Virus record (IMG/VR): IMGVR_UViG_2897358383_000002
Strand: one strand, 5' to 3'
Length of the DNA: 64,000 bases
Source of the DNA: a virus
Lineage: Duplodnaviria; Heunggongvirae; Uroviricota; Caudoviricetes
The position numbers and the translations under genes were made by a program. Below the pieces are notes generated by a model. The model was not told the DNA's origin, made no database searches, and saw nothing but the letters and a program-made list of their open reading frames with translations. Each line of letters starts with the position of its first letter. Within the stretch, counting starts at the first letter, position 1. Below are positions 3,104-4,356 of this stretch, in pieces.

Positions 3104-4356
3104 GCGAGATGAGTTATCTGGAAAAATTGCTGGATGGGGTTGAGGTTGAGTGGAAGACTCTCGGAGAAGTCGCAAAATATGTACGTGGTTTAATTTATAG
3201 CAAATCGAGTGAAAGCGCGGATGGTCAAGGCTATAAAGTGCTTCGCGCTAACAATATCACGCTGTCTAATAATTGTTTAAATTTAAATGATGTCAAGGTG
3301 GTGAGGTTCGACACCAAAGTAAAGAGTTCGCAAAAGCTATATAAGAACGACATTCTAATTAGCGCAGCAAGTGGTAGCCGTGAACATGTCGGTAAAGTTG
3401 CTTACATAGAATCTGATATTGACTACTACTTTGGCGGATTTATGGGGGTCGTCAGATGCGATGAAAAATTAAATCCACGTTATTTATTTCACGTTTTAAC
3501 AAGTGATATTTTCCAAAAATATCTTGATGAAATGTTGAATAGCTCAACCATTAACAACTTGAACTCAGCCGTAATGGGAAGATTCAAAATCCCATTACCC
3601 TGCCCAGATACCCCGGAAAAATCCCTTGCCATCCAGTCTGAAATCGTTCGGATTCTGGATAAATTTACTGCACTTACCGCTGAGCTTACCGCTGAGCTTA
3701 CCGCTGAGCTTACCATGCGTAAAAAACAGTACAACTACTATCGCGACCAGTTGTTGAGTTTTAAAGAGGGTGAGGTTGAGTGGAAGGCATTGGATGATGT
3801 TTTTGACATTGTTGCAGGCGGCGATGCACCAAAAGATGCCTTATCCGAATTTGAGACCGAGGAATTCAGCATCCCCGTTTTATCAAACGGTATAGGTAAT
3901 AAATCACTATATGGATGGACTGACAGAGCCAAGATTGAGAAACCGAGTCTCACCATATCTGCAAGAGGTACTATTGGATGGACTAGCTATAGAAGTAGAC
4001 CATTCTTTCCGATAGTGCGACTGCTGGTCTTGACGCCAAAAATTAAATTAAACTTGAAGTACGCTTATTACTTCATGAAAACCATTGAGAATAATTACAA
4101 AATCCCTGAGGCAGGCATACCCCAGCTAACTAAACCGATGCTCAAAGACATTAAAATCCCCTTCCCATGCCCCGGTAATCCGGAGGAATCTTATAACGAA
4201 CAAGCCAGAATCGCAGCGACTCTCGACAAATTTGACGTCTTAACAAATTCGATTACCGAAGGTCTTCCGCGTGAAATCGAGTTGCGCCAGAAACAATACG
4301 AGTACTATCGTGATTTACTGTTCAGTTTCCCAAAACCCAAAACTGTCAGTAATTAA
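3100..4356 (+). CDS. hsdS: Type I R-M specificity subunit HsdS (Type IC-like, TAEL repeats in central conserved region)
   Basis: 418 aa; two target-recognition-domain halves separated by [12 protein letters not shown] and ending with a second conserved region ([10 protein letters not shown]); overlaps hsdM stop. Confidence 0.85.
3673..3714 (+). repeat. 12-bp tandem repeat (cttaccgctgag) x3.5 encoding (LTAE)3 in the HsdS central region
   Basis: Direct read: cttaccgctgag repeated at 3673, 3685, 3697 plus a partial unit to 3714. Confidence 0.9.

Follow-up and report, generated by a model that had tools for sequence, protein, structure and literature searches.

The part that TAEL repeats play in the specificity subunits (HsdS) of Type IC restriction-modification systems has been textbook knowledge since 1987-89. 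EcoR124I, with two repeats, recognises GAA N6 RTCG and EcoR124II, with three, recognises GAA N7 RTCG (Loenen et al., PMC3874165). EcoDXXI and EcoprrI also have three TAEL, with an N7 gap and a methyl interval of 8 (7 in EcoR124I). According to the same review (PMC3874165), an extra TAEL shifts the domains by ~0.34 nm and 36 degrees, changes in repeat number arise via unequal crossing-over, and hybrids of EcoR124I and EcoDXXI with an altered repeat number showed gap lengths shifted as predicted. The review also takes three repeats to be the apparent optimum from alignments, and leaves open how the register of the coiled coil copes when one helix is a turn longer than the other. More recently, a 2023 study converted EcoR124II into EcoR124I by deletion of a single unit (PMC10644984).

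The locus described here lies in a stretch of 64,000 nucleotides (hereafter the window, meaning the whole stretch of DNA that was analysed) from IMG/VR virus record IMGVR_UViG_2897358383_000002. An initial reading made from the letters alone (the sequence-only reading) had reported three perfect TAEL-coding units at 3673-3714 within hsdS. It had also stated that the number of repeats, two in EcoR124I versus three in EcoR124II, sets the spacer, which is what the literature records (PMC3874165). Tandem Repeats Finder and translation confirmed the number, the perfection and the coding content of the units, and the placement in hsdS holds because the surrounding ORF carries two Pfam Methylase_S stretches (3100-4356; E 6e-47).

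The array consists of 3.5 perfect copies of a 12-bp unit, CTTACCGCTGAG, read directly from the (+) strand of the window at 3673-3714. Tandem Repeats Finder gives it a period of 12, 100% matches, 0 indels and a score of 84. No other array in the first 12 kb of the window equals it in period and quality, and it is one of seven that score 50 or more in the entire 64 kb. By our own arithmetic, an exact self-match of 30 bases at lag 12 has a chance of ~4^-30 (~1e-18) per position, too small to matter in 64 kb. Codon 192 of the ORF begins at position 3673, and the translation reads L-T-A-E three times followed by L-T, that is, three TAEL. A primer used for EcoR124 in PMC10644984, ctgcacttaccgctgagctt, is identical to window positions 3668-3687, which span the left junction and the first unit; the DNA unit is therefore the same as that of EcoR124. 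An antisense ORF that overlaps the array (3489-3734 (-), 81 aa) was considered and rejected as a gene, as it has no support.

The array is part of a set of genes in the order hsdM-hsdS-hsdR, whose features, together with those internal to hsdS, are as follows:

1541..3103, + strand: hsdM, m6A methyltransferase subunit, 520 aa (Pfam HsdM_N and N6_Mtase; match to EcoR124 HsdM, 7bst_D)
3100..4356, + strand: hsdS, specificity subunit, 418 aa (ORF; Pfam Methylase_S twice; match to EcoR124 HsdS, PDB 7bst_A, E 6e-71)
3160..3579, + strand: TRD1, for one half-site, about aa 21-160 (no match to an EcoR124 TRD; boundaries approximate)
3580..3771, + strand: central conserved region, about aa 161-224 (near-identical to EcoR124 HsdS residues 140-236 bar one extra TAEL)
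3673..3714, + strand: perfect 12-bp tandem array, (L)TAEL three times, in the central conserved helix of HsdS (Tandem Repeats Finder, sequence, translation and repeat search)
3772..4179, + strand: TRD2, for the other half-site, about aa 225-360 (best Pfam Methylase_S stretch 226-394; boundaries approximate)
4180..4356, + strand: C-terminal conserved region, the second coiled-coil helix, with the stop codon (matches EcoR124 HsdS 347-404; internal alignment)
4384..4413, + strand: promoter-like site in the gap between hsdS and hsdR (9/12 consensus match; weak, with a regional site count not above shuffle expectation)
4478..7594, + strand: hsdR, translocase/endonuclease subunit, 1038 aa (Pfam HSDR_N, SWI2_SNF2/ResIII, T1R_D3-like and EcoR124_C)
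7788..7811, + strand: terminator-like hairpin downstream of hsdR, 10-pair stem and T run (consensus match only)

The hsdS gene is coupled to hsdM, its start overlapping the hsdM stop by 4 nt (ATGA, 3100-3103), and hsdR is set apart by a gap of 121 nt, in which the site at 4384..4413 is a possible separate promoter for hsdR. RefSeq records place the start of hsdM at 1547, giving a protein of 518 aa. HsdM aligns over its full length with EcoR124 HsdM (1-520 with 1-520 of 7bst_D; 1156 bits), and HsdR does so with EcoR124I HsdR (1-1038 with 1-1038 of 2w00_A; 2255 bits), including the C-terminal EcoR124_C domain (PF12008, E 1e-71). On the basis of the gene order, these full-length matches and the conserved regions of HsdS, we assign the system to Type IC, with M and R subunits of the EcoR124 type and a different pair of TRDs. 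The sequence-only reading had arrived at the same class, and the order of the genes, the EcoR124_C domain and the two scores bear it out.

A further 12-bp repeat (1.9 copies, GCTGAGCTGAAT) is found at window positions 2996-3018, at the 3' end of hsdM, where it encodes ...AELNAEL.... This AEL-type duplication is in the C-terminal helix of the methylase subunit.

In a phmmer comparison with 7bst_A, the window HsdS is matched only at residues 1-34, 161-263 and 361-418, where the two proteins are near-identical, and both TRDs are unmatched. Two variable TRDs are thereby set between conserved regions characteristic of the Type IC family (N-terminal, central and C-terminal). The central region contains a long helix, the partner of the C-terminal one, in which the TAEL array is located; the alignment of this region to EcoR124 HsdS contains a single length difference, a gap of 4 residues, the solved chain having two TAEL and the window three.

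The resemblance to EcoR124I and EcoR124II (plasmids R124 and R124/3) is close. The 12-bp unit is shared and is found at the equivalent point of the central conserved region, HsdM and HsdR are near-identical from end to end, and so are the three conserved regions of HsdS. The window shares the 3-unit state of EcoR124II, and here, too, variants differ only in the number of units. There are, however, several differences. Neither TRD is related to its EcoR124 counterpart, so that the half-sites should differ, the residue after the array is T in the window but N in EcoR124, and the carrier is a P1-like phage-plasmid, with the operon beside phd/doc, whereas EcoR124 is on a conjugative R plasmid. In addition, the window allele has a natural 1-unit variant. 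With EcoDXXI and EcoprrI the window shares the family, the three TAEL and a predicted methyl-adenine interval of 8, but its TRD pair is different and it has no prrC between hsdS and hsdR, where the gap is only 121 nt.

The TRDs themselves occur in other combinations. TRD1 is found with 100% identity in five other HsdS proteins (P0022, P0040, P0047, P0048 and P0081), in which it is the second (C-terminal) TRD, and it is also in first position in other HsdS with unrelated second TRDs (for example, P0014). P0029 and P0056 have a TRD2 that is 100% identical to that of the window. This distribution points clearly to modular shuffling of TRDs, including swaps of position. A 19-nt direct repeat (95%) at 3138-3156 and 3768-3786 encodes (G)VEVEWK / GEVEWK ahead of each TRD. 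It is left over from the two-fold duplication within hsdS and may serve as a substrate when TRDs are exchanged. Reading the half-site specificities from similar proteins was considered and rejected. TRD1 weakly resembles the N-terminal TRD of EcoKI (E 3e-12), but an identity of ~29%, by our own count of the alignment, is too low for transfer of the AAC specificity. P0056, which is named EcoprrI S in one source, shares TRD2 at 100% but has two TAEL where the review gives three for EcoprrI; this unverified name was probably transferred by similarity.

The window is identified, from its identity with a phage and from its neighbouring genes, as a P1-like (Punavirus) phage-plasmid of E. coli in which the Type IC operon adjoins phd/doc. 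Positions 1-24383 are 99.8% identical to Escherichia phage vB_EcoM-673R5 (Punavirus, 95 kb). Genes annotated nearby are doc/phd, pdcA/pdcB, lpa and pacA/B to one side and pmgS to the other. At the same site, Type IC operons with different TRDs, and with 2, 3 or 4 units, are found in further P1-like plasmids. A search of the literature on P1-like phage-plasmids yielded no paper on Type I systems or hsdS in them, and the preprint on phage vB_EcoM-673R5 leaves the R-M system unmentioned.

Some other features of this carrier were noted. A very large near-perfect inverted repeat occupies window positions 54000-63800 (arms ~54000-56997 and 60804-63795, with, for example, fully complementary tracts of 1412 nt and 918 nt), where a P1-like genome has its tail-fibre genes and invertible C-segment. 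The repeats of P1 are ~0.6 kb; the arms in the window are far longer. Each arm holds a 300-bp tandem repeat (5.3 copies, 98% identity), one of which is inside an ORF of 1003 aa (54655-57666 (+)) that is mirrored by minus-strand ORFs (62181-63143, and 63068-63502, which is a copy of 54296-54730). An imperfect 21-bp tandem array (29358-29434; 3.7 copies, 82% matches) lies ~100 bp upstream of a gene annotated, in the identical plasmid of strain Z1002, as a RepB-family replication initiator; the array probably represents the iterons of the plasmid origin. ARAGORN finds three tRNA genes on the minus strand at 21145-22805, for Met (CAT), Thr (TGT) and Asn (GTT). The CAT gene, with an identical sequence, is annotated as tRNA-Ile in the Z1002 plasmid record and as tRNA-Met in the phage record, which fits an identity set by lysidine modification.

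The window hsdS recurs with 100% DNA identity in phage vB_EcoM-673R5 and in 22 complete plasmids of E. coli (mostly 94-101 kb) whose hosts and countries vary, and all of these carry three units. In addition, the 3-unit central region and the C-terminal conserved region align with no gap (31/59 residues identical), whereas with the 2-unit form BLASTP opens a 4-residue gap at the TAEL stretch. At three units, then, neither helix of the coiled coil is longer than the other, and this agrees with the remark in PMC3874165 on three as the optimum. Such observations can be read to mean that three TAEL, as in EcoDXXI and EcoprrI, are simply the canonical symmetric length of a Type IC spacer, stably inherited within the present lineage, with no switch in practice. 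We regard this as unlikely, since there are versions with two units and with one that lack any substitution over 50 kb (two) and 10 kb (one), and proteins that differ by a single unit occur in three further TRD backgrounds.

The clearest 2-unit case is plasmid p1002-1 of E. coli Z1002, a complete circular assembly, which differs from the window by one 12-nt gap and 0 mismatches over 50,012 bp. Two further 2-unit loci (L010 and L011) show, unit gap aside, 0 mismatches over 10,356 bp. The corresponding protein (P0121, 414 aa) is present on 44 contigs, with 72 blocks in the contig index (NCBI, ENA and Logan). The 1-unit version (locus L009; GCA_013025885.1, DABHXJ010000017.1, 6001-7233) is on a 92-kb contig; over 10,356 bp it has only a 24-nt gap and 0 mismatches, it encodes an HsdS of 410 aa (P0122) with a single TAEL, and its hsdM, hsdS and hsdR are all full-length. 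The three other TRD backgrounds are represented by pairs of proteins that are identical bar one TAEL (P0014/P0030, P0029/P0078 and P0038/P0083). The sequence-only reading had expected perfect units of this kind to invite gain and loss, and these otherwise identical versions are what it anticipated.

Several of the variant contigs are from short-read draft assemblies, and tandem repeats are prone to mis-assembly, so that the 1- and 2-unit variants could be artefacts of assembly or sequencing with no real polymorphism behind them. We consider this extremely improbable. The whole array, at no more than 42 bp, is shorter than a read; the 2-unit form has a complete circular assembly behind it and recurs across numerous independent samples from NCBI, ENA and Logan; and the indels invariably comprise whole units and remain in frame.

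Diverged relatives of the locus (L013, with 12 mismatches, and L012, with 166) have two units each, which suggests that the third unit of the window is a recent duplication. Two units would then probably be the ancestral state, by parsimony and from few sequences. Taken together, the alignments indicate that whole-unit change at this locus is much faster than substitution in the surrounding DNA. The absolute rate of switching is probably not high, given that the 22 complete plasmids all have three units. From these 22 of 22 plasmids we infer that the TAEL array is a rare evolutionary switch rather than a means of fast phase variation.

Two described cases help to place it. In the Type IC-like system NgoAV of Neisseria gonorrhoeae, a 4-residue repeat (LEAT/EATL) in the central helix of HsdS likewise varies in number from strain to strain, and this changes the gap, giving N6 and N7 motifs (PMC6789123). 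The repeat sequence and the host are different, however, and the effect in NgoAV is joined with a truncation of hsdS and a palindromic specificity. Type I phasevarions (PMC7383803) are similar in that a change in the length of a repeat tract in hsdS alters the output of the system. Their tracts are long, hypermutable and made of short units, and mostly turn expression on or off via frameshift, whereas the window array consists of three 12-bp units, always remains in frame, has a low apparent rate and concerns spacing, not expression. It is thus unlikely to be a hypermutable simple-sequence tract of the phase-variation type.

To see how unit number is distributed more widely, we used a query of 144 nt spanning a 2-unit array, which matched 1367 records in 5,426 complete E. 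coli genomes. Sixty rows spread evenly down the ranking were sampled, and unit number was derived from the span of each record; for eight sampled records that were fetched, the number was confirmed in all (8/8). Two units were found in 30 rows, three in 23, five in two and one in a single row, and four rows were unusable. Sampled E. coli Type IC hsdS thus have two units in ~54% of cases and three in ~41%, although the genomes are non-independent and these proportions are rough. The high share of three units is a further point for a fixed canonical length. A query with four units recovered at least 10 records with four units and two chromosomes with eight perfect units. This megablast search ranked 2-unit alleles first (two overlapping pieces being joined) and was used only to find the 4- and 8-unit alleles. 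The IMG/VR matches comprised 16 with two units and three with three. A protein census of the top 120 cluster representatives (115 with two units, four with one and 0 with three) was discarded as biased, because matches are ranked by shared TRDs, the collection is clustered at 90% and the window protein is absent from it.

Alleles with four, five or eight units were rare, and every such locus that was fetched was damaged. The perfect 8-unit array (96 bp) is on the chromosome of E. coli 33-6 (NZ_CP050031.1, locus L003, 1561-1660) and also in strain 58-3; at this locus hsdS is split by an IS1, its 5' end being detached, and hsdM is truncated. At two 4-unit loci, one of them on a P1-like plasmid, an IS3 is inserted in hsdS. 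In the 5-unit locus, and in the 1-unit locus from a complete genome, hsdM is a pseudogene. The chromosomal loci with four and five units are related to the one with eight. Damage therefore affects 5/5 of the fetched complete-genome loci outside two to three units, compared with 1/6 control loci with two or three units (a frameshifted hsdM); by our own calculation, this gives a one-sided Fisher p of ~0.013, for loci that are not independent. As a lead, from a small sample in which some loci share ancestry, the pattern suggests that selection may keep working systems at two to three units and that the array may drift or expand once the system is dead.

A stronger version of this is that changes in unit number mostly damage the enzyme, its specificity being lost or loosened, so that variants persist only as decaying or inactive systems. 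The excess of damaged loci is in its favour, with the caveat of non-independence just given. Against it, the change between two and three units is a clean N6/N7 switch in EcoR124I/II and in the EcoDXXI hybrids (PMC3874165). Moreover, the 1-unit allele of the present lineage is in an operon with full-length hsdM, hsdS and hsdR, and the Fisher p weakens to ~0.04 once this intact locus (L009) is included. We judge it to be very improbable.

We consider it highly probable that this is the TAEL module setting the spacer length in a Type IC HsdS of the EcoR124 family, carried by a P1-like phage-plasmid, with retargeting proposed by analogy to the characterised enzymes. Those features of a Type IC system and of a TAEL switch that can be looked for in a sequence were all found here. 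As in EcoR124I/II, EcoDXXI and their hybrids, the central and C-terminal conserved helices would form an antiparallel coiled coil that separates TRD1 from TRD2. Each TAEL would add about one helical turn and move the TRDs by ~0.34 nm and 36 degrees, equivalent to one base pair of the target, so that two units would give an interval of 7 between methylated adenines (N6 gap) and three an interval of 8 (N7 gap). The window enzyme should then recognise a bipartite site at the 3-unit spacing, with a methyl interval of 8, and its 2-unit and 1-unit siblings should recognise the same half-sites one and two base pairs closer together, at intervals of 7 and 6. For the TRD pair of the window, retargeting by one base pair is an extrapolation from other TRD pairs. 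Units would be gained and lost by unequal crossing-over or replication slippage, at a rate that appears high relative to point substitution and low in absolute terms.

A broader proposal is that P1-like phage-plasmids diversify Type IC specificity in the wild by gain and loss of TAEL. Under this proposal, lineages with one, two and three units would methylate and restrict different sites, the 1-unit enzyme would be functional with an interval of 6 (an N5-type gap), and unit numbers outside one to three would occur only in dead systems. We give this somewhat less than an even chance. A methyl interval of 6 is absent among the characterised Type IC enzymes in Table 1 of PMC3874165.

This is a case of a known mechanism in a new context of TRDs and carrier. 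What appears to be new is the natural allelic series, in which plasmids that are otherwise isogenic in the aligned DNA carry one, two or three units; it is a modest but useful addition. In particular, a 50 kb phage-plasmid backbone in which one TAEL unit is the sole difference between two isolates, with a third isolate having one fewer, provides a natural example of the process. The 3-, 2- and 1-unit plasmids are ready isogenic material for examining the rule of one unit to one base pair on a new TRD pair. They also bear on whether a Type IC enzyme with one unit is active and on how the coiled coil accommodates a change in helix length on one side only. If the 1-unit enzyme of L009 is active, it would provide a Type IC gap two base pairs shorter than that of the window. 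Typing of plasmids and phages by sequence identity would call these unit variants identical, yet they may differ in their restriction barriers and methylation patterns. If the broader proposal is true, a phage-plasmid could, by gaining or losing a unit, change both the competitors that it excludes and the hosts that accept its progeny.
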